From an uncultured delta proteobacterium (GTDB lineage Bacteria; Myxococcota_A; Polyangia; Fen-1088): a stretch of DNA of 64,000 nt. The first letter of the stretch is position 1, and every line of letters starts with the position of its first letter. The stretch covers positions 224,001 to 288,000 of the forward strand of contig CAWCMR010000011.1 of NCBI GenBank assembly GCA_963796685.1. Reading direction: 5' to 3'. Under the pieces are notes generated by a model that saw only the letters and a program-made list of their open reading frames with translations, was not told where the DNA came from and searched no databases. This document shows positions 42,535 to 64,000 of this stretch, in pieces. Position numbers and translations under genes: made by a program.

Positions 42535-43620
42535 GTGAGCTTCACGCCGTACGACCGGCCCGTTCGAGCCGCTTTCGTGGGCCTGGGCCGCATCTACGAC
42601 CTAAATATCCGCGCCTATGTCGGCAATCCCGACGTCGAGGTGGTGGCCCTGGTCGACCCCAGCGAGGAGCGTCGAACGCACCGCCAGCGCGGACTGGCGC
42701 GGTGTAAACGCGCCTGGTGGGCGAGCTGGCCACAAGTGATGTCGAGGTTGACGCAGTCGAGCCGTTGTTACCCATTCCGCTGCACACAGAAGGCGTGATC
42801 GAGCTTCTGCACCATGGGTGGCACGTCAACTTGCAAAGCCAATGTGCAACAACCTAGCTGATGCAGGGGAATGCTGGCCGCCGCCAGTGCCAATGACCGA
42901 CTGTTGAGGGTCATGGAGAACTACATCTTCTACGAGCCGCTGGTCAGGCTGAAGGAAATCGTGGCCTCTGGCGAGCTGGGCGAGGTTACCGGGTACCACA
43001 TGAAGACGGTGGGTAGCGGGCCGGGGGTCGGGACGTCCCACGAGCAGTTACGAGTGGCAATTTCAGCAGATGCGTTGGGCCGCGGCATCCTCGTATTTGA
43101 CGACGGGTGGCACAAGCTGGCGACGGCCATCTGGCTCTTCGGCTCCATCGTGAGGTGCGGGCATGGGTGGGGGCCACTGAGATTGTGCGTGGCGTGGAGA
43201 CGATGCTCCAGCACCATTGTGTGGGAGCACGACAACGGGGTGCGCGGGGTTTGGGACATCGTACTGGCGATCGACATGTACCTACGGTCGACTACTACAC
43301 CAACAAGGCGCAGGTTGGGAAGTCGACGGGCGGCGCGGCTACGCTCGTTCGAACCGGTGCACGGGTCGAGGCATCCAACAACCGAGCCTCGAGGTGTACG
43401 CCGATGGGGAGATGCGCTCCTCCATGCCCTCGATGACGACTGGGCCGCAGCTTCCGCGTTCCGGCCGCCACTGGCTCCGCTGGCTCCACACCGGCGATGG
43501 ACCGTTGCTGTGGAGCCGGTACTGAAGCTGTCGATGTACTGCGATTCGCCCTGGCTGCCTACGCGAGTTGAGTGCCAGTGGTGGTGTTGGCGTGGACCCG
43601 GCGTCGCTCTTGTAGCTACC
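42535..43620 (+). pseudogene. Gfo/Idh/MocA oxidoreductase, heavily disrupted
   Basis: VRAAFVGLGRI, VVALVDP, QKPMC-like segment, VMENYIFYEP, FDDGWHK; many frame breaks. Confidence 0.75.
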
Positions 43621-43942
43621 CATCGATCGCGGCCCACATGGAGCGGAGAACAGCTCCTGGGAGCGTTTCAAGGTGTCGCGAGTTCGTGTCAACACGTGCT
43701 GGCGTGTCACGTGTGGGAGTTCCTCGACGCAATATCATGGGCTCGTCGTGACTGCGGCATGGCTGTGTTCGCGCGCCGGAACTGGCGATCGTCTGCTCCA
43801 CGCCAAATCGCCGGTCCGAAAGTGGACGGTTTCCGTGTTTCAAGGGTGGCGGGAGCCAAAAGACTCCGTCGCTACCCCCAACAATCGGATCCTGAACACT
43901 CCGAGCTTCAATTCGATGAACACCCACTCGTCCGTTTGTTCG

Positions 43943-43969
43943 TGGAGCGGGCGCAAATGCTTTGAACCC
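43943..43969 (+). repeat. tmRNA-3'-like attachment site A (degenerate)
   Basis: TGGAGCGGGCGCAAATGCTTT-GAACCC aligns with the sites at 57578 and 59442 with one base missing. Confidence 0.65.
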
Positions 43970-44141
43970 GCCTCCAGCCGGCCTCGGGCAGTCGGAGGAC
44001 TGAGAACCATCTTCGCCCCCAGCAACAGCGCGGCGGCGGCTTCGGTGTTGAGGACGTTCAAACCCGGATGACGTCTCATTGTGCGACAACGTGAACGTTG
44101 TCGATTTCGTCGGTCTTTCTTGGCTAGGGGAGTCGGACTCT

Positions 44142-46047: not shown

Positions 46048-46118
46048 GTTAGCAAACTGTGAACTTAGTTGACAGTGTGTCCATGGCGCCCGATACTTCG
46101 AGTATGCGGCGGGAGGGG

Positions 46119-47677
46119 ATGCACGATTCACCGAAGATCAGCACGACGAGGCGCCACGGCCGCCGTCGTCTCGAGCGGCGTCGCTGTCATGGCGCTGGCA
46201 CTCAGCGCCTGTAGCGGCTCGCCCTCGGAACCGGTCGCCTCCTCCGAGCGGGTGACCGGCGGTCCGACGGGGCACTACGTGGTGCCGGCGGGGATCCACA
46301 AGATCAAGCACATCATCGTCATCGAGCAGGAGAACCGCTCCTTCGACAGCTACTTCGGCACCTATCCGGGCGCCGACGGGCATCCCGATGCGAGAACGGC
46401 GTGCCGACCGTCTGCGTGCCGGTGCCGACCGGAGGCTGCCAGGCGCCCTACCACGACACCGCCGATGTGAACGGCGGCGGTCCGCACAACGTGCGCGGCC
46501 GCCCGGATCGACGTCGACGGCGGCAAGATGGACGGCTTCGTCTACGCCGCCTCGGGGGTGAAGAAGGGGTGCGGGGCGAACGTCAACGACCCGGCCTGCT
46601 CGAACTCGGCGGCACCCGACGTCATGGGGTACCACACGGCGGCCGAGATCCCGAACTACTGGACCTACGCCAAGGACTTCGTGCTCGACGACCACATGTT
46701 CGAGCCGGTGAAGTCGTGGTCGCTCCCCGACCACCTCTACCTCGTCTCGGGCTGGTCGGCCAAGTGCTCGAGCCCGGCGCCGTCGAGCTGCAGCAACCAG
46801 ATCAAGGGTCCCTACACGCCGCTGCAGATGCAGGAGTACGTGGACCAGGCCATGGCGACCGGGACGGCCGACGGTCACCAACGCCTGGACCGACATCACC
46901 TGGCTGCTCTACAACAAGCACGTCCCCTGGGCCTACTACGTCCAGACCGGGGACCAGCCCGACTGCGAGAACGACGGAGCGGTCGCGTGCGCCCCGGTCG
47001 CCCAGAGCTATCAGACCCCCGGGATCTGGAACCCGCTCCCCCTCTTCGAGGACGTCCAGAAGGACCACCAGCTCCGCAACATCCAGCCGCTCGACAACTA
47101 CTTCACCGCCGCCAGGAAGGGAACGCTGCCCTCGGTCATGTGGATCGCACCCTCCCAGGCCGACAGCGAGCACCCTCCGGCGAGCGTCCACCAGGGGCAG
47201 GCCTACGTCACCGCGCTGATCAACGCCGCCATGAAGAGCCCCGACTGGGACTCGACGGCCATCTTCTTGCAGTGGGACGACTGGGGGGGCTTCTACGACA
47301 GCGCGGTGCCCGCCGGCGGTGGACCAGAACGGCTACGGCCTGCGGGTCCCGGCACTCGTCATCTCGCCCTATGCCAAGCGGGGCTACATCGACTCCCAGA
47401 CGCTCAGCAGCGACGCCTACCTCAAGTTCATCGAGGACGACTTCCTGGGCGGCTCCCGGCTCAACCCCAAGACCGACGGACGCCCGAACCCAGGGCCGAC
47501 GTCCGCGAGGACGAGAAGGTCCTCGGCAACATGCTGCAGGACTTCGATTTCAACCAGAGGCCCCGGGCACCGGTCCTGCTGGCGACCAACCCCGCGACGG
47601 ACTCCCCCACCATCCCGGCGTACTTCAGCGGAAAAGGGCCCTGCGTCGGCTGCACGGCGACGCCGCCGAGCACCTAA
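46119..47677 (+). CDS. Phospholipase C / phosphoesterase family lipoprotein (frameshifted)
   Basis: LSAC lipobox; KIKHIIVIEQENRSFDSYFG, DSEHP, WDDWGGFYD, GLRVPALVISPY. Confidence 0.9.
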
Positions 47678-47744
47678 GGGGCCCGGGGCGGTCCGATGGT
47701 TGCGCCCCGCCCGAGATCGGGCCCTCCGATGCGAGAGTGGCGTT

Positions 47745-48200
47745 ATGACTCCAGAGACGGAAGAAACGCCGAGCCAGGACTTTGACGTCTTGGTGATGCG
47801 CTTCGTTGGGATCGGCCACTTTGCAGTTGACTTCAATCTCTACGGAAGCGTCGGCAGGTACGCAACCCTCACCTTGAGACCAACCGACTTTCGGATACAG
47901 AAGACCAATCGTCACGGCATGCCCAAAGAAGGCAGTGCCGCCTTCCCAACGTTATGGACTTGGAGGTTGACGGAGATTCGCTCTGCACGGGTCTTCAAAA
48001 GTCCGTGGTGGATACGGATGGCCGGGATCAACGCAAGCTACCCGTCTGGAATGGTGTTGGACATGGGAGCTTCGGGTTGGAATCTACTGCTCTTCAGTCG
48101 GCAGTTGGACTCCCTGCTCCAAGCCTTCGGCGATCAAGGCGTGGGCATTGCAAAGAACCCAAGAACGCTCACACCGCTGGTATTTCGCCGCGAGATTTAG
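47745..48200 (+). CDS. Hypothetical protein
   Basis: Clean 151-aa ORF with lower GC than its neighbours; no recognised domain. Confidence 0.55.
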   Translation: MTPETEETPSQDFDVLVMRFVGIGHFAVDFNLYGSVGRYATLTLRPTDFRIQKTNRHGMPKEGSAAFPTLWTWRLTEIRSARVFKSPWWIRMAGINASYPSGMVLDMGASGWNLLLFSRQLDSLLQAFGDQGVGIAKNPRTLTPLVFRREI

Positions 48201-56552: not shown

Positions 56553-57059
56553 CTACGGTGTCGTGGAGCTGACCTGTAGCTCGGGCGATCGAGTCAGGGT
56601 CTGGAGAACGACGCAGTACCGTTCCGTCGTTTCGATGAGGGCATTGAGCTCATCCTCCGAGGCAGAACTCTTGAGGTCGAACGACAACCGGATCGAGGTA
56701 AACCCGACGGCGGCATTTCGATCGACCCCCAGCGTTCCACGGAAATCAAGATCGCCTTCCGCCCGGACGATGCCCTCGACTTCAAGACCCCGGTTCGTGG
56801 CGACGGACCGAAGTGTCACACCAGCACACGCCACCAACGCCTGAAGCAACATGTCTCCAGAGCAGGCGAAGCTGCCATCGCCCCCAGTCGCCGGGTGAAG
56901 GCCGGCCTCAACCATTGCTCGACCGGTCGCCACGGAGCAGGTCACTGCTTCGCTCCCGAGACGGCCCTCAGCCTGCAAGGTGATCATGGCGGTCACCGGG
57001 TCCTCTCGATACCGAGCCTTCAAGGGAGCCTGGACTTCCTTCAGATCCTCAGCTTTCAT
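56553..57059 (-). CDS. OsmC family protein
   Basis: AGGAGG RBS; AGLHPATGG, LVACAGVT, TERYCVVLQTL. Confidence 0.92.
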   Translation of the reverse strand: MKAEDLKEVQAPLKARYREDPVTAMITLQAEGRLGSEAVTCSVATGRAMVEAGLHPATGGDGSFACSGDMLLQALVACAGVTLRSVATNRGLEVEGIVRAEGDLDFRGTLGVDRNAAVGFTSIRLSFDLKSSASEDELNALIETTERYCVVLQTLTRSPELQVSSTTP

Positions 57060-57248
57060 GTGAGCCTCCTGGACTCCCCCGGCCTTTCCTTGACCCGGTG
57101 GGGGTGACCGGAATGTGTAGTTCTCCGTCGGGTCCAGTGCAACGGTGAGAGTCCGGCCAGGTAGCGCATACTGGGGGGGGGTATATCTAGTGATCCCGGG
57201 CGCATGATGTATCGCCGTGGTTGGGCGGAACGTGCCGTTCGCAGCGCG

Positions 57249-57586
57249 TGTGGAGGCTGTAGAACCGAAGTCGGCGATGCCAATGGGAATTGGAAGGGGG
57301 GCGAACGCGACACAAGGCCGGCTCCGTGATGGTGCGAGTCCCCGGGCGCCCGCGGGCCGGAAAGAGCCCTTACGTATTCGAACACATCCTGGTGGCGGAA
57401 GGACTGCTCCGGACGCATCTCGTGGAGGGCCTACCGGAGATCCTCGAGCTGTGGACGCGTCCACAGCCCTCAGGCATCCGAGTGAGCGACGCCGTAACGT
57501 GGGCGCGGTCGATCTACGACCGTTACGTGGATGTCGGTGCACCTCCAACTGTGCTCACGGTCTCCCCTGAGCATCCTTGGGGCTAA
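57249..57586 (+). pseudogene. HNH endonuclease remnant, copy A (5' truncated, active-site segment deleted)
   Basis: Highly similar to 59745-60116; YVFEHILVAE present; the ETVHHINAIRD segment is absent; ends PEHPWG*. Confidence 0.85.
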
Positions 57587-57605
57587 CGGGAATGCTTTCG
57601 AACCC
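57578..57605 (+). repeat. tmRNA-3'-like attachment site B
   Basis: TGGGGCTAACGGGAAT-GCTTT-CGAACCC versus tmRNA end TGGAGGTGGCGGGAAT-CGAACCC. Confidence 0.8.
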
Positions 57606-57847
57606 CGACGCCGCCCTCCTCATCCTCCTTGGTCTGGAGAAATAGCAAGGGCTGCCATCCGGGGCCGATGAAGTCGGGGATCCCGAGCGTGCCCGACCAG
57701 CGGTGGCTCATGCGTCCCTGGTCGAGCGGCCGGGTGACCTCGATCAGTTCTGAGGGGCTCGCCTGGGCTCACAAGGCCTCTGACCGGGATAGCTGGCGGT
57801 TGGTCAGGAATCACCACCGGAGGTCCCGGCGAGCCAAACTGAAGCCC

Positions 57848-59185
57848 GTGGATCGACCCGAGACCCGGTACGCCGCGGTTGATGACGCTGACATCGCATA
57901 CCAGGCCACCGGTGACGGTCCTCTCGACTTGCTGTTCTGCTACGGCTTCGGCAGCGCCATCGACCTTGGCTGGGACGAGGCCACCACGTACCCCGAGTTC
58001 TATCGCCGCCTGGCCTCGTTCAGCCGACTCATCCTCTTCGATCGGCGAGGAACGGGAGCCTCCGACCCCATTTCCGCCGGCGTCTTCCCCACCTGGGAGT
58101 CGTGGGCCGAGGATGCCGGCGCTGTCCTCGACGCCGTCGACGCCGAGCGGGCGGTTCTTTTCGGCGCCCTCGACGCCGGGGCGCTGGCAGTCCTCTACGC
58201 CGCCATGCACCCCGAGCGGGTGCAAGCCTTGATCCTGCTCAACAGCAGCGCCCGATTCTGCCGAGACGAGGACTACCCCATCGGCGTAGCACCCGAGGCG
58301 CTCGAGACATTGATTGGCATTGTGGAGCAGGCGTGGGGAACCCGCCAGCTCGTCACTGCCGTCAATCCAGCCATGGCCGACGATGATGCCTTCCTGGAGG
58401 CCGTAGCTCGTGTCATGCGGGCGGCGGCGACCCCGCGTCGAGCGGCGACCCAGTTTCGCTACCTCTTGAGCAACGTCGACGTCCGTCCGGCACTCGACCT
58501 GGTGCAGGTGCCAACCCTCGTCCTAAGCGTGGCAGAGAGTGTCTTCGTGCCCGTCGAGCAGGGGCGCTACTTGGCCGAGCACATTGTCGGTGCCCGATTC
58601 GTCGAGCTTCCTGGGGCTGAGGTCGGCCTCTCTCCTCCGCTGCTTGGTATCGTCGACGAGATCGAGGAGTTCGTCACGGGCGAGCGTGGCACGGCCGATG
58701 TCGACCGAGTCCTGGCCACGGTGCTGTTCACCGACATCGTCCGGTCGACTGAACGAGCCGCCCAGTTGGGTGACCGGCGCTGGCGATCGCTACTTGATGC
58801 CCACGATCGCGCCGTGCGGGAGCAGTTCCGACGCTTCCGGGGTCGGGAGGTGAAGACCACCGGGGACGGTTTCCTGGCGTCATTTGACGGGCCGGCACGC
58901 TCTATCCGCTGCGCCCAGGCCATCGTCGAAGCCACCCGCTCGCTCGGCGTCGATGTCCGGCTCGGCCTGCACACAGGGGAGTGCGAGGCTCGCGGCGACG
59001 ATCTCGGAGGGCTCGCCGTCCATATCGCGGCGCGCGCGGGCGCGTTGGCCGACCCGGGTCAGGTCCTCGTATCGGGTACCGTCAAGGACCTGGTCGTGGG
59101 ATCGGGCATCGAGTTCAACGACCGCGGCGAGGAGGAGCTGAAGGGCGTACCTGGGTCGTGGAGGTTGTTCGCCGTGAGACAGTGA
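57848..59185 (+). CDS. Alpha/beta hydrolase-adenylate cyclase fusion (LipJ/Rv1900c-like)
   Basis: PETRYA, FDRRGTGASD; cyclase motifs VLFTDIVRST, TGDGFLA, GLHTGE, AVHIAAR, LKGVPG. Confidence 0.92.
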   Translation: MDRPETRYAAVDDADIAYQATGDGPLDLLFCYGFGSAIDLGWDEATTYPEFYRRLASFSRLILFDRRGTGASDPISAGVFPTWESWAEDAGAVLDAVDAERAVLFGALDAGALAVLYAAMHPERVQALILLNSSARFCRDEDYPIGVAPEALETLIGIVEQAWGTRQLVTAVNPAMADDDAFLEAVARVMRAAATPRRAATQFRYLLSNVDVRPALDLVQVPTLVLSVAESVFVPVEQGRYLAEHIVGARFVELPGAEVGLSPPLLGIVDEIEEFVTGERGTADVDRVLATVLFTDIVRSTERAAQLGDRRWRSLLDAHDRAVREQFRRFRGREVKTTGDGFLASFDGPARSIRCAQAIVEATRSLGVDVRLGLHTGECEARGDDLGGLAVHIAARAGALADPGQVLVSGTVKDLVVGSGIEFNDRGEEELKGVPGSWRLFAVRQ

Positions 59186-59441
59186 CCGACTGGATATCCG
59201 CGGTGACATCCAAGTAGGCGGGCATCCTGTACGTGCCGGTCCCAGTCGGACCTTGCCTGCTGGCCGGCACAACCGTCGGGTAGCGCATACTCGGGGATCC
59301 CGGTGGGGTCGCGGATCTTCAGGTCGCGAGCAAGATCACCGGTTTGTAACCGAGTCAGCGTCCGGTCCACCTCCCCGGTATGCCATCACGAAGATTTTGC
59401 GTCGCAGGGATTCGAAAGAGCGCGGTTACCTCTGGGACGCG

Positions 59442-59469
59442 TGGTACTAGCGAGAATGCTTTCGAACCC
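59442..59469 (+). repeat. tmRNA-3'-like attachment site C
   Basis: TGGTACTAGCGAGAATGCTTTCGAACCC shares GAATGCTTTCGAACCCC exactly with site B. Confidence 0.8.
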
Positions 59470-59615
59470 CAGCGACCTCTTCTTCGCACTGAAGGATCTG
59501 ACTGGCAACAAGAGGCCCGATAGCGGTATTCGCCTCCGTCAAGTTGCCCTCGACCCAAGTCTTTGCACCGACAGCACCAAGTTCTCGTCGATACACCCCC
59601 GAGCTACCGTCGGTC

Positions 59616-60116
59616 ATGCGTGAGAGGCAGTGCAAGGAATGCGAGAGGATCTTCCAGCCATCCAGTAGGCATCTCCGGTGTCCTGCCTGCAGGGCCAAGG
59701 ATCTGTGTGCTTGTGGGAAGGCAAAGCAGACAGAATCAGAGACATGTGCAGGCTGTAGAACCGAAGTCGGCGATGCCAACGGGAATTGGAAGGGGGAGAG
59801 AAGGCGACACAAGGCCGGCTCCGTGATGGTGCGAGTCCCCGGCAACCCGCGGGCGGGAAGGAGCCCTTACGTATTCGAACACATCCTGGTGGCGGAAGGG
59901 TTGCTCCGGAGGCATCTCGTGGAGGGCGAAACGGTCCATCACATCAACGCCATCCGAGACGAACCCGTCCTGAGAAGGTCGAACTCTGAACGCGGCCACA
60001 GCTCTCAGGTATCCGCGTGAGCGACGCTGCAAATTTGGACGCGGTCGACCTACGACCGGTACGTGGATGTCGGTGCACCTCCAACGGTGCTCACGGTCTC
60101 CCCTGAGCATCCTTGG
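59616..60116 (+). pseudogene. Zn-finger + HNH endonuclease, copy B (frameshift/stop after the HNH motif)
   Basis: CKEC, CPAC, CACG, CAGC; NGNWKG; YVFEHILVAE..ETVHHINAIRD; the Trp codon of copy A is TGA here. Confidence 0.88.
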
Positions 60117-60424
60117 AGCAGGTTCAACGTTTCTTGAACCCTCTTTCCGATCCTGACACAAGGCTGGATCTCGAACGCCTTCACAGAGTCTTCGCAGGTC
60201 ACGGGTCATCTTGGCTCGACAGTGGCCCTCGTCTACCGACCCCGAGGCAGCGGCAGGTTCACCTCAGCGAGGGGGATCGCGGCAGGCTTGTGGCTGCCTA
60301 TCTGGCTGGCGACACCGTCAGGAACCTGGCTAACACTTTCCAGCTCCATCGTGGAACGGTAAGCGAGATTCTGTCCCGCCATGGTGTGATTGATCGGCCG
60401 CATGGGCCTCGCCCAAAACGGTAG
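60113..60424 (+). CDS. Small helix-turn-helix protein starting inside site D
   Basis: LVAAYLAGDTVRNLANTFQLHRGTVSEILSRHGV; N-terminus EQVQRFLNP is encoded by the site. Confidence 0.8.
   Translation: MEQVQRFLNPLSDPDTRLDLERLHRVFAGHGSSWLDSGPRLPTPRQRQVHLSEGDRGRLVAAYLAGDTVRNLANTFQLHRGTVSEILSRHGVIDRPHGPRPKR
60114..60141 (+). repeat. tmRNA-3'-like attachment site D
   Basis: TGGAG then GAACCC at the same N19 spacing; HNH-repeat similarity ends at this TGG. Internal bases are more divergent than in B and C. Confidence 0.7.
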
Positions 60425-60532
60425 CCGGGGGTTAGATCGAACGTCGCTACGGTGTCAGTGGCTGAGATCGTCAAGCGGTGAAGGCCTCTAGTCACTGTTC
60501 TCTCCACCGCTTGCAAAAGCCGATTCCCTGAC

Positions 60533-60850
60533 TCAGTTGCCAGGAAGTGCGCCAGGTTCGGCGCCGCCGAAGACAGCTGCAATCCGGTCAAGGTGACGCG
60601 CCCAGAGTTGGTGATGGAAGGCGGCATCCTCCGCGCTCAGGCCGGAGAACTGGACCCTCACAGTTGTGCTGTCACCCGTCGGGATGAGGGTGATCTCAAT
60701 GAGTGCAGGTGTCGTCGTCTCGTTGTCGGTTCCGTGACGGTCCCATTCCATGACCAGGCGGTGCGGGCGATCGACTTCGATGTAGCGGCCAGTGATCGCA
60801 GTCCCGCCAAGGTCAAGGTGGAACATGTTCCCCGGCCGAGGAGTCGTCAT
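60533..60850 (-). CDS. SRPBCC/AHSA1-like protein (N-terminally short)
   Basis: GRYIEVDRPHRLVMEW, W..HLDRI; ATGA overlap with the SDR gene. Confidence 0.72.
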   Translation of the reverse strand: MTTPRPGNMFHLDLGGTAITGRYIEVDRPHRLVMEWDRHGTDNETTTPALIEITLIPTGDSTTVRVQFSGLSAEDAAFHHQLWARHLDRIAAVFGGAEPGALPGN

Positions 60851-61776
60851 GAAATGAAGCGGTGGATGGCCTCATTGGCGTGGTCCTGAAAGGACGGGTT
60901 GGCCAGATCGGGGAAGATATCCGCTTGGTCGACCAAGGGACCCGTCAATTTGTTGGCCGCGCTGGCGTAGAACACACCACTCAACAGAGTCGGATCGATG
61001 ACGCCGTCGACGAGTCGCTTCGAGCCCACTTCAAGGTCGTGGGAAATGCCGAGATGGGGCATGATGTGTTTGGCCGCAAAGCGCAGCGGTAGCGCTGCGC
61101 CGCCGGCGGCTTCGGTGCCCGTGGTGTTGCCGGGGCTCACAGTGATAAAGCGTAGGTCGGGGTATTGGCGCGCCAGGTGGGCCATCCATAAGGCCCCGAT
61201 GTACTTGACCTGACCGAAGGCGAGATTCCGATCAAATTTTCTGTCAGCGAAGTAGCTGCCGTCGATGACGGTAGTGAGTTCGTCGGTAGAGGTTGAAGCA
61301 AAGGTGGGCCGTTTGAACCCCAACTTCGGTATTCCCCTGGCTGCTTCACTCGCGGCGAACACCGCTACCTCGCGAAGTCGGTTCTGGGTCAGGAGCCCTT
61401 CGAGGAGAACGGCGTGACCGAGAGCGTTCGTTGCGAACAGTTTGGTAGTCCCGTCAGCGGTCAATTCCATCAAGGTCTTGCTGCCGATTACACCAGCGTT
61501 CATGACCAGGGCGTCGAGGGTTCCGTCGATGGCCGCTAGGCCGGCGCGGACCGAACCAAGATCGGCGACGTCCATCAGAATGATGTCGAAGATGTGTCGG
61601 CCGGTCATGGCTTCGAGATCGGCCTTTGCCATTGTCGCTCGATTCTTGTTCCGGCACGCCAGATAGATGCGGCCCATCTCAGGACGTAACGCCAGTTGCC
61701 GGGCCACATCCTTGCCGATCCCGACGTTGGCGCCCGTGATCAGTACCGTCTTTCCTGGGCCGTTGAGGTCAGTCAT
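60847..61776 (-). CDS. SDR family oxidoreductase
   Basis: VLITGANVGIG, LACRN, VMNAG, VSPG. Confidence 0.9.
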   Translation of the reverse strand: MTDLNGPGKTVLITGANVGIGKDVARQLALRPEMGRIYLACRNKNRATMAKADLEAMTGRHIFDIILMDVADLGSVRAGLAAIDGTLDALVMNAGVIGSKTLMELTADGTTKLFATNALGHAVLLEGLLTQNRLREVAVFAASEAARGIPKLGFKRPTFASTSTDELTTVIDGSYFADRKFDRNLAFGQVKYIGALWMAHLARQYPDLRFITVSPGNTTGTEAAGGAALPLRFAAKHIMPHLGISHDLEVGSKRLVDGVIDPTLLSGVFYASAANKLTGPLVDQADIFPDLANPSFQDHANEAIHRFIS

Positions 61777-61803
61777 ACGTTGCTCTATCCCCTCGCTGCA
61801 AAT

Positions 61804-61853
61804 TGGGTGGCGCAACCCATTCTGACCTTTCGACACTGGGTTGTCAAACCCAG
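61804..61853. promoter_or_regulatory. Paired TetR operators TGGGT-N6-ACCCA
   Basis: Two palindromes (61804-61819 and 61837-61852) between the divergent SDR and TetR genes. Confidence 0.7.
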
Positions 61854-61874
61854 AATTTCAGCTAACATCGGAGC

Positions 61875-62480
61875 ATGGTCAACGAGACGAGTGACCGGCC
61901 GAGGCTCACCCCCAAGGGAGCACGCACCCGGGCACGAATAGTGGAGGAGGCCGCCGCCCTTATCCATGAGCGCGGGGTTGCGGCCACCACCTTGGAAGAC
62001 GTCAGGGTGGCGGCGGAAGTCAGTGGCTCTCAGATGTCCCACTACTTCCCCGGCAAGAACGATCTCGTGCAGGCGGTCATCGACTACCACGCCGACGCCA
62101 TCGTCAATCGCAATCGGCAGGCGCTCAGCAGAGCGAACGGCGTCGAAGCCTGGCGGAACATGGTGATCACGGCAGCGAAGCGCACCAAAGCAAAGGGGGG
62201 ATGCCAACTTGGCTCGCTCGTTAGCCAACTCGCCGAGAGTGACCCCGAGGCCCGAGCGCTCATCGGGGCAGGGTTCGCTGAGTGGGCAGCCGCTATCGGC
62301 GATGGACTCAGATCCCTTCATGCCGACGGCAAACTCCGGTCCGACATCGATCCGGACGACCTTGCCACTACTCTGCTCGCCGCGCTCGAAGGAGGGCTTC
62401 TACTCGGTCAGGTACTTCGGAGTTCCCGCCCGATCGAAACTGCGGTCGATACCCTCCTCGCCCTCGCCATTGGCAGATGA
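61875..62480 (+). CDS. TetR/AcrR regulator (NemR/LmrA-like C-terminus)
   Basis: TRARIVEEAA..TTLEDVR..HYFPGKNDLV; GGCQLG. Confidence 0.92.
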   Translation: MVNETSDRPRLTPKGARTRARIVEEAAALIHERGVAATTLEDVRVAAEVSGSQMSHYFPGKNDLVQAVIDYHADAIVNRNRQALSRANGVEAWRNMVITAAKRTKAKGGCQLGSLVSQLAESDPEARALIGAGFAEWAAAIGDGLRSLHADGKLRSDIDPDDLATTLLAALEGGLLLGQVLRSSRPIETAVDTLLALAIGR

Positions 62481-62538
62481 GGCCAAGCGGCGCAAACAGG
62501 TGTTCGCGATCGCCGAACTACACCAATGTAGTTACCCG

Positions 62539-62888
62539 TGGAGGTGGCGGGAATCGAACCCGCGTCCTTCGGCTTCTCATCGGGCCTTCTCCGAGCGCAG
62601 CCGGCAGCTAGAGTCTCGGGACCCCCGCCGCCGCCGGCGAATTCGAGGGTCCCCAACCGACTTTTGGTGTCCCCGGCGGCCAATCGGTGGAACCGCTCGG
62701 GTAAGCCCCGCTAGATGACGCCCGCTACCGGCCTGCAGGGCTGAGACCGGACGGACGGGCTACTTATTAAGCAGCCAGCGCGAGCTGAGGCTCGGCATTT
62801 GTTTTTTGTTCCGGCTCTTTAACGTGGCTCCGGAGACCACGGCTCGCTTCTCCCGAATTGACGACCAAAGTCGAAACCGATCACCCCC
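62539..62888 (-). ncRNA. ssrA: tmRNA; tag reading frame AEPQLALAA** (62767-62796); full CCA not encoded
   Basis: 5' GGGGGUG pairs with 3' CACCUCC-A including G3.U70; T-arm GGUUCGAUUCC; LAA-stop tag; immediately downstream of smpB. Confidence 0.97.
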
Positions 62889-62955
62889 TGTGTCTGTGTC
62901 GGGTCCCATCCTACCGGCGGGTGCAGGGCGCTGAGCCCGACGGGGGACGTAGGAT

Positions 62956-63512
62956 TCAGTCGTATTCCTTGCGGGCCCCCCGGCCCACGCTCTTGCCCGG
63001 CCGCGAAGCGGGCCTCGCGCGCCGCGTCACGCTCGGCGTCGCGTGTGGCGATGGCGTGGCGCTTGTCGTAGAGGCGCCGGCCCTTGGCCAGGGCCAGCTC
63101 CACCTTGGCCCGGCCGTCTTTGAAGTAGATCGAGAGGGGCACGAGCGTGAGGGCCTTCTGCTGGGTCTGGCCCATGAGCTCGTCGATCTCGTCGCGGTGC
63201 AGGAGGAGCTTGCGCCGGCGCTCGGGATCATGGGCGCCGAAACCCGCGGCGTGCTCGTAGGGGGGGATGTGCACCCCGAGCAGCCAGGCTTCGCCTCCCT
63301 CGACCCGCGGCGTAGGCGTCGGCCAGGGTGACCCGCCCGGCCCGCAGGGACTTCACCTCGCTTCCCTGCAGGGCGAGGCCACATTCGTAGGTCTCGAGGA
63401 TGTCGTAGTCGTGGCGGGCGCGACGGTTCCGGGCGACCGTCTTGATCCGGTCGGTGCCGTCGTCGGGGACGCGGCGCGACGCCCGACGTCCCGGTCCTTT
63501 CGCTGCGGCCAC
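62956..63512 (-). CDS. smpB: SsrA-binding protein SmpB (apparent frameshifts)
   Basis: [53 protein letters not shown]. Confidence 0.97.
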
Positions 63513-63586
63513 CCGCGGAACGGTACCCGGCGTCACGCCTGCCGGGTCCGTGCCGGGGGCGAAGGCCCCCGGTACCCTCGATGGGC

Positions 63587-64000
63587 ATGCTCCGCCTGCC
63601 CGCCCACGTCTACGCCGAGATCGTCGGCCACTGCCTGGGCGGGCTCCCCGACGAGGCGTGCGGGCTGCTCGGGGGCGACCCCGCCACGGGCGACGTGGCC
63701 GGTGCTACCCGACCCGCAACCTCGCCGCCTCGGCCAAGCTCTACACCGTCGACCCCGCGAGCACCTCCGGGCCGACCGTGACGCCGAGTCCCGCGGCATC
63801 GAGATCATCGGCGTCTTCCACTCCCACACCCACACCGACGCCTACCCGTCGCCCACCGACATCGCCCAGGCTCCGATCCCGGCTGGCACTACGTGCTCGT
63901 GTCGCTGCGCGACAGCCATCCGATGGTGCGGTCGTACCGCATCCGCGGCGAGGTGGTCGAGGAGGAGCCGGTGGTGGTCGAGCCCGGTGAGCCCGCCGTG
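63587..64000 (+). CDS. mec: M67/JAMM metallopeptidase (Mec-like), runs off the window
   Basis: PDEACGLL; [15 protein letters not shown] (HxH-x7-SxxD); HYVLVSL. Confidence 0.85.

Follow-up and report, generated by a model that had tools for sequence, protein, structure and literature searches.

A helix-turn-helix gene whose first codons may double as half of the attachment site of cassettes stacked beside a tmRNA gene

The window analyzed here, a 64,000-nucleotide stretch of contig CAWCMR010000011.1 (C11) from an assembly of an uncultured delta proteobacterium, carries beside its transfer-messenger RNA (tmRNA) gene a cassette that opens with a small helix-turn-helix (HTH) gene. Sequence comparisons indicate that the first nine codons of this gene double as half of the docking site of the cassette, and that insertion and excision rewire the start of the gene. 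We think it probable that these 27 nucleotides form the P' half of an attachment (att) site belonging to an element that relies on a large serine recombinase (LSR) for its movement and inserts at tmRNA and tRNA gene 3' ends, the cassettes in the window being LSR-less and non-autonomous. Genomes, contigs, and loci are identified by G, C, and L numbers; all relatives are metagenome-assembled genomes (MAGs), counts are from a single sample of 401 genomes, and two to seven of these, which are unpublished, were used in tallies only. The central features are:

60113..60424, plus strand: HTH gene, 103 amino acids, starting with TTG, in the one-HTH branch of a bipartite-HTH family (homologues, purifying selection)
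60113..60139, plus strand: codons 1-9 of the HTH gene, putative attP-derived P' half-site with TGGAG core and distal TTGAACC
60114..62538, no strand: inserted cassette of 2425 bp with HTH gene, AHSA1 fragment, short-chain dehydrogenase (SDR) gene, TetR gene, and right-end motif
62489..62538, plus strand: right-end motif R1, putative attP-derived P arm, with inverted repeats GAAC..GTTC and GAACTACA-N4-TGTAGTT
62539..62543, plus strand: second copy of the TGGAG core of 60114-60118, located at the tmRNA 3' end
62536..62888, minus strand: tmRNA gene (ARAGORN; Rfam RF00023, 150 bits)

The open reading frame (ORF) at 60113-60424 has 18 homologous proteins of 96-178 amino acids, with 49-78% identity over 91-99% of length. 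Among the genes of the window, L006, and L008, codons 10-100 contain 95 synonymous and 65 non-synonymous pair differences, an excess that argues for purifying selection on the protein; these comparisons point to a real, conserved gene. A sequence-only reading had proposed that att-like sites in this region double as the start of the HTH gene, and this stood: the start is common to all homologues and the TGGAG junction lies at it. Conservation in the alignment begins exactly at V-E-Q-V-Q-R, and the longer annotated N-termini are mutually unrelated. At E<=1e-30, a search with a 20-member alignment returned 595 cluster representatives; at E<=1e-10 the count rose to 9364, many top matches being long multi-repeat proteins and the tail surely including unrelated HTH proteins. 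Among 48 short single-stretch representatives out of 150 listed, the motif [VM]-E-[VL]-x-x-x-[YLWF]-S-[NK] was found in 42 (V in 32, M in 10), at residue 1-2 in 24 and after unrelated extensions in 18; the remaining six start at a methionine within the motif. Homologues thus start at the motif and not downstream of it, as the sequence-only reading required.

Most family members have two HTH repeats, and the branch in the window has one. The atlas clusters are mainly Actinomycetota. No curated family in Pfam or NCBIfam fits these proteins: Pfam gives only HTH_23/28/38, with two-HTH relatives above cut-off and the window protein at 16 bits to HTH_23/HTH_38 (gathering cut-off 27), and the NCBIfam HTH_Cbp1 match is far below cut-off. 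Two longer fused forms (184-200 amino acids) lack a catalytic domain, and a plasmid collection contained one partial match to the family.

The gene start behaves as a DNA site would. Each of the 12 distant genes examined begins GTGGA(G/C)(G/C)T, and the family start consensus, GTGGA(G/C), encodes V-E-[VL]-x-x-x-[YLF]-S-N. The opening 16 bases of L029 and L041 are identical to the complement of a tRNA-Ala 3' end, like that of L011; five additional bases come next, and then TC(G/A)AACC. In two groups of close genes, synonymous differences in codons 2-9 number 0 in 24 and 0 in 48 pair comparisons, against 95/273 and 118/588 outside these codons; sliding eight-codon windows with zero synonymous change number 4/92 and 1/99. 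Among 13 distant genes, where numbers are small, Ser-8 is TCN in 11/11 against AGY in 22/85 elsewhere, and Lys-9 is AAA in 3/3 against 17/65 elsewhere. The lack of synonymous change in codons 2-9 argues for constraint at the level of DNA.

The junction falls between a variable base and TGGAG, and the start codon therefore changes its first base with the left neighbor, as had been suggested from the sequence alone: most loci have G there, the window has T, L016 has A, and L006 and L009 have C. In L009 an intact gene for a 147-amino-acid, two-HTH protein lies behind an R1 motif, with CTG replacing GTG. Family genes at L109 (5691 and 17160) and L063 (reverse, 346) are preceded by another type of right end, CG(T/C)TACTCAAACC(N2) up to the junction, which is a copy of the distal part of the att-like site itself. 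In L006 (100-180), three tandem copies of GTGGAGGAGGCGT (core repeats) stand behind an R2-type motif.

The cassette at 60114-62538 lies exactly between the tail of an HNH gene and the tmRNA 3' end, with TGGAG alone in common. An empty site is present in G550 (tmRNA 90% identical), where the HNH tail gagcatcct is directly joined to TGGAGGTGGCGGG; the letters there are the tail gtggatgtcggcgcacctccaacggtgctcacggtctcccctgagcatcct joined to TGGAGGTGGCGGGAATCGAACCC. Similar HNH tails occur at the tmRNA end in G723, G791, and G680, making 4 of the 21 tmRNA loci examined with G550 included. A peat metagenome contig (run X3) joins 60113 to 62539, with 2425 bases absent and five letters fitting both sides; it is one contig from a relative, its shorter side is 24 letters, and it is not proof of excision in this strain. 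The sequencing runs compared are all assembled contigs, and none contained more than 14% of the sequence words.

R1 is a conserved 46-nt motif, ACGCGAAC-N4-GTTCG followed by CCGAACTACA-N4-TGTAGTT, that is kept in eight loci, some copies standing beside relic starts, and occurs once in the assembly. It precedes the tmRNA end in the window, tRNA-Ala in L011 and L012, a tRNA-like end in L007, and HTH starts in L010-L012 and L016, and it is also found ahead of further family starts in L006 and L009. The eight copies show no compensatory changes in the R1 hairpins, and conservation of structure and of sequence are indistinguishable in them. These ends bear on whether the gene could be an ordinary regulator with a conserved N-terminal peptide, its likeness to tRNA ends and its boundaries reflecting a recombination hot spot that has no dedicated site. 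V-E-V in a GC-rich genome yields GTGGAGGT unaided, and most HTH loci have no tRNA nearby, but this explanation, already disfavored, is highly improbable given the exact empty sites, the right-end motifs common to several loci, the absence of synonymous change in codons 2-9, and the invariant order of HTH gene, LSR gene, and tRNA or tmRNA gene described below.

The cassette carries the following cargo:

60533..60850, minus strand: AHSA1/SRPBCC gene fragment, 5'-truncated (Pfam AHSA1 profile 30-124/125), cut at junction 60826/60827
60820..60831, no strand: perfect palindrome GGAACATGTTCC, breakpoint of the cargo inversion
60847..61836, minus strand: SDR gene (Pfam adh_short; 92% DNA identity to L006)
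61875..62480, plus strand: TetR-family regulator gene (Pfam TetR_N/TetR_C_13; 93% DNA identity to L006)

The cargo is inverted relative to L006 and L010-L012, and the palindrome at the breakpoint also truncates the AHSA1 gene. SDR and TetR together are 92-93% identical to G418, the tmRNA of which is 81%, the smpB region 70%, and the HTH gene 79% identical to those of the window; from these comparisons the cargo appears to move between hosts. Cargo at other loci includes RibD_C, DUF3224, GNAT, ECF sigma, type I restriction-modification, PIN, SocA/Panacea, and AbiV-like genes. L010 was considered as an excised circle and ruled out, its ends (87% alike) being two tandem cassettes. The tRNA-Ala cassettes (L011 2288-4735, L012 1364-3811) consist of a full HTH gene, about 1.2 kb with DUF3224, an 84-nt piece from the 3' part of another HTH gene, and RibD_C; the fragment implies that cassettes recombine within the HTH gene too. 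Another type of tmRNA 3' flank was seen at L020 1380-1500, L021 1380-1505, L085, and L090 (G419, G418, G450, and G492), in which a hairpin ending CGCCACCTCCA, an inverted copy of the last 11 bases of the tmRNA, is followed by two copies of GTTTCATGAACAC and then the tmRNA end. CACCTCCAACGGTG is common to this flank type and to the HNH tail in the window.

Large serine integrases recognize sites in which the zinc-ribbon motif lies 5 bp nearer the center in attB than in attP, according to Rutherford et al. (2013; PMC3783163). In the window, GAACC starts at base 19 in the tmRNA end and at base 24 in the HTH start and at the two relic sites s1 and s2 described below (base 23 at the doubtful site s4). 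G567 and G525 have the distal motif at 21-27 in the HTH start and at 16-22 in the tRNA of the same element. By this analysis, the 5-bp outward shift of GAACC in the HTH start would be the hallmark that distinguishes an attP from an attB half-site. As is expected of precise insertion by LSR elements at a short core, only TGGAG is shared and empty sites exist; the symmetry of the site would place the crossover at the GG of TGGAG. An LSR gene is lacking in the window and present in relatives, and the window agrees with the description of cis-mobilizable elements in that both junctions are kept, there is no recombinase, and autonomous relatives occupy the same target. The arms beside the LSR gene contain an inverted motif, GGTT(C/T)(G/T)A, at -22..-16 in five of the seven junctions listed.

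LSR homologues (E<=1e-70) were found in 44 of the 401 sampled genomes, which belong to the order of the relatives. Of 25 LSR loci returned, 24 were scanned (L135 was omitted), and 19 of these have a convergent tRNA or tmRNA gene directly at the LSR gene 3' end; three of the other five are at contig ends. The 19 targets are Val (7), Ser (5), Ala (3), and tmRNA, His, Arg, and Gly (1 each). Four of four further LSR loci also have a convergent tRNA or tmRNA gene (23/28 overall). LSR homologues are present in 10/16 HTH-bearing genomes against 34/385 others, a contrast to which we attach no P value because kin are not independent. In all seven same-contig pairs (G581, G643, G707, G472, G525, G567, and G440), the HTH gene is upstream of the LSR gene, on the same strand, at 9-44 kb. 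The sequence-only reading had called for a check of linkage to recombinase genes or to tRNA and tmRNA ends; linkage to these RNA genes and, in relatives, to an LSR is borne out, although the LSR gene is at the other end of the element and not a neighbor, and none is present in the window.

G490 carries two family genes and also a frame of 620 codons that encodes Resolvase, Recombinase, and Zn_ribbon_recom domains and runs up to the junction with TGGAGGTGG of the tmRNA end and across it. Neither this frame (L113 664-2523) nor the HNH frame of G550 (L097 1309-1968) has a stop before the junction; the two run into the tmRNA gene, so their C-termini depend on the DNA across the junction. Pfam searches of 69 ORFs at 40-64 kb found no recombinase in the window, and none was found between tmRNA and smpB in G419, G492, and G644. 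As for a tyrosine recombinase, the IntI criterion of integrons, C11 had no PF00589 match beyond 9.5 kb. The bin as a whole (G000) has 51 PF00589 matches, and clusters of at least three adjacent tyrosine recombinase genes at C10:128933-150498, C11:3771-9538, C12:29376-35217, and C25:679384-683852 resemble recombinase-in-trio elements.

The full element in related genomes runs from a left junction through the HTH gene, cargo, and LSR gene to the tRNA or tmRNA gene; a complete example, G643:C15, measures 10.6 kb and ends at tRNA-Val. We propose that the cassettes in the window lost or never had the LSR and are non-autonomous and cis-mobilizable-like. The 46-nt right-end motif would be the P arm. 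The left partner would supply the start codon NTG, GTG behind a P arm or tRNA flank and TTG here. Because the 3' end of the recombinase gene would abut the HTH start in the circle, HTH expression should differ between the circular and integrated states. Our best guess is that the HTH protein binds the element ends or controls the recombinase, as a directionality factor or a regulator. More tentatively, an undescribed large class of tRNA- and tmRNA-targeting serine-recombinase elements in Actinomycetota might build the translation start of a control protein by recombination: attP would comprise the 3' end of the LSR gene and the 5' end of the HTH gene, excision would create an operon and integration a new start codon and promoter, and LSR-less cassettes would form integron-like arrays served in trans.

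It is also possible, at rather less than even chances, that the HTH protein is, as the sequence-only reading had suggested, a classical recombination directionality factor whose production depends on whether the element is integrated or excised and whose loss fixes older cassettes. A small element-encoded DNA-binding protein at the att site, a neighbor that supplies the start codon and upstream DNA, an HTH gene that would follow the LSR gene in the circle, and the decay of the relic copies are all consistent with this role. To our knowledge, LSR systems have no common directionality-factor fold. The structural kinship with directionality factors that the sequence-only reading had raised was not borne out, however: the models of the two-HTH member and of the window protein gave no match to an Xis-type winged-helix fold. 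The AlphaFold model of the two-HTH member L009:3443-3883 (predicted local distance difference test, pLDDT, 80.5; first 30 residues 49-58) gave only bipartite HTH matches by Foldseek, to Cbp1 (2lvs, E 1e-3) and, more weakly, to the transposase DNA-binding domain of Tc3 (1u78) and to Pax (6pax). The model of the window protein (P0001; pLDDT 67, residues 1-8 below 50, HTH residues 50-90 about 87) had no structural match at E<=1e-3. In addition, a promoter scan gave nothing upstream of the HTH gene in the window, where no Shine-Dalgarno signal was seen either, and the intact second gene with a CTG start in L009 shows that decay is not the rule.

Several observations weigh against the assignment of the gene start to an LSR-recognized half-site. 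Searches of the assembly for PF00589 and PF00239 gave no recombinase in the window, nor any past 9.5 kb on the rest of C11, and a tblastn comparison of 28 recombinases of the bin with 32 HTH loci, a rough test, gave two partial matches only. LSR homologues (E<=1e-70) are absent from 6 of the 16 HTH genomes, including the closest carriers, G418 and G419, and a convergent tRNA or tmRNA gene lies within about 6 kb in only 7 of about 27 HTH loci. The R1 and R2 motifs of the small cassettes have (C)GAACT where the P arms of LSR elements have GGTTCGA (-22..-16), and another clade of enzymes may therefore act on the small cassettes. Tandem junctions of a P arm with a P' arm require recombination of the attP x attR type, a reaction that LSRs do not perform in vitro according to PMC3783163. 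AT-rich or structure-poor 5' codons could be a partial cause of the synonymous constraint, and part of the apparent decay may be indel error, given the many split genes in the assembly.

To the left of the cassette, the window contains what are best read as older cassettes, also without recombinase and stacked by accretion, in the order HNH copy A, s1 with its cyclase cassette, s2 with HNH copy B, HTH cassette, and tmRNA gene:

43942..43972, plus strand, uncertain: possible outermost decayed site s4
57217..57586, plus strand: HNH pseudogene copy A, 5'-truncated, with frameshift and deleted HNH motif
57577..57645, plus strand: relic site s1 and decayed ORF of 22 codons
57629..59185, plus strand: alpha/beta-hydrolase and adenylate/guanylate cyclase cargo gene (Pfam) of cassette 57577-59440
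59441..59623, plus strand: relic site s2 and decayed ORF of 60 codons, without HTH
59617..60138, plus strand: HNH_3 endonuclease pseudogene copy B, with TGA nonsense codon and frameshift

Re-reading of the sequence confirmed all four sites and translations that had been listed: TTGGGGCTAACGGGAATGCTTTCGAACCCC at 57577 (LGLTGMLSNP), GTGGTACTAGCGAGAATGCTTTCGAACCCC at 59441 (VVLARMLSNP), TTGGAGCAGGTTCAACGTTTCTTGAACCC at 60113 (LEQVQRFLNP), and GTGGAGCGGGCGCAAATGCTTTGAACCCGCC at 43942 (VERAQML and a stop, one base short). As had been noted, only the tmRNA-proximal copy at 60113 is intact, the others ending after 22 codons (57577), 60 codons (59441), and seven codons (43942). Three of them, 57577, 59441, and 60113, are more than chance: the 16-mer GAATGCTTTCGAACCC occurs at two of these places and nowhere else in the 7.3-Mb assembly, the segment 57578-57631 matches the left end of the G550 HNH cassette at 87% identity, and all homologues have the 60113 start in common. 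Site 43942 is weaker and may be a decayed site or a chance match, since the 3' end of a Gfo/Idh/MocA-like ORF (42871-43965) contains it in frame and the loose pattern of its type has 22 matches in the assembly. From their sequences, 57577 and 59441 appear to be the left ends of older cassettes with a decayed HTH gene. A further candidate on C6 (107198) was rejected as chance, with no HTH behind the site. Comparison by tblastx for synteny left of the array gave noise only.

A feature that the sequence-only reading had missed is that one HNH pseudogene tail precedes both 57577 and 60113, in copy blocks 80-96% identical that end at CATCCTTGG. The last ~75 nt of copy B constitute a right-end motif (R4), and an HNH tail ends a cassette in G723. 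The abutment of HNH_3 genes on the tmRNA end in G550 and in the window could suggest homing, in which cleavage of the tRNA-like site by an HNH endonuclease would lead repair to copy cassettes into it, with the HTH protein as the DNA-binding half or immunity factor of a split homing enzyme. Phage family phrog_7545 lends this some color, its HTH part being matched by the HTH family and its nuclease part by the HNH protein. We nevertheless judge it improbable: HNH homologues occur at the tmRNA gene in four genomes and the window only, with none in the other HTH loci (98 loci, 611 kb), both copies in the window are pseudogenes, and homing would not predict the conserved right-end motifs or the 5-bp rule.

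GC content in the window is about 0.60-0.73. The tmRNA gene is the only match in an Rfam gathering scan of the window, and the Pfam scan of ORFs placed smpB adjoining it. Many genes at 40-64 kb are spread over frames: a phosphoesterase (46069-48200) over four frames, smpB (62819-63588) split, and OsmC within an over-long ORF (56553-57548). Decay or indel errors are therefore common there, and the split genes are either a pseudogene run or assembly indel errors. C11 is probably mis-binned: its smpB is only 66-72% identical to those of same-genus genomes, its tmRNA is unmatched in them, and the same bin has a second smpB-like locus (G000:C25:264470-264602). The tmRNA and smpB of the window are 88% and 82% identical to those of the Acidimicrobiaceae MAG G419. 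The HTH family is found in 0/88 genomes of the order of the bin and 0/400 of its class, counts that are uninformative because of the probable mis-binning.

Composite islands of the staphylococcal cassette chromosome (SCC), in which ccr-less elements lack an integrase, keep attL and attR, and are stacked at a target gene, offer a precedent for such an array. Cis-mobilizable elements and tRNA accretion are described in similar terms (PMC5704250), with both att sites kept, no integrase, and stacking beside the target gene, but such elements are usually viewed there as decayed integrative conjugative or mobilizable elements, whereas the cassettes here have a family-wide core gene at the left end. 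The Dehalococcoides ssrA islands are likewise in tandem behind ssrA, with a serine recombinase (DsiB) module at the island edge, and 15 of the 31 islands reported are without an integration module and were suggested to be cis-mobilizable (McMurdie et al. 2011; PMC3146451). As described there, they have a direct repeat of 20 bp and are inserted in the T-loop, against five shared bases at the extreme 3' end here; the present elements also target tRNA-Ala, -Val, and -Ser, include cassettes of 0.7-2.7 kb, and carry a conserved HTH gene whose start would be a half-site. Tycheposons of Prochlorococcus, as described, are islands beside tRNA and tmRNA genes with tandem junctions and niche-gene cargo, but encode their own tyrosine-type integrases (bioRxiv 10.1101/2020.12.28.424599). 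Large serine integrase att sites, in the account cited above (PMC3783163), share the distal zinc-ribbon motif 5 bp further out in attP and the short crossover core. The CRISPR repeat-binding protein Cbp1 and the bipartite domains of Tc3 and Pax are the best fold matches of the two-HTH member, but the HTH family shows no sequence membership with them and has an extra N-terminal motif and another context. We know of no phage attP that forms the first codons of a conserved gene, and a literature search found no report of one.

If this interpretation is correct, the conserved N-terminal peptide of a large uncharacterized HTH family would be explained as the shadow of a DNA site. The family would also provide numerous natural attP/attB pairs for tRNA-directed serine integrases, a kind of enzyme in demand for genome engineering, and a testable case of site-specific recombination rewiring a gene start. 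The array illustrates how small accessory cassettes, carrying regulators, dehydrogenases, restriction systems, or toxin-antitoxin genes, may accumulate behind tmRNA and tRNA genes while encoding no recombinase themselves. Should the translation start indeed be built by recombination, it would act as a physical memory of whether the element is integrated or excised.

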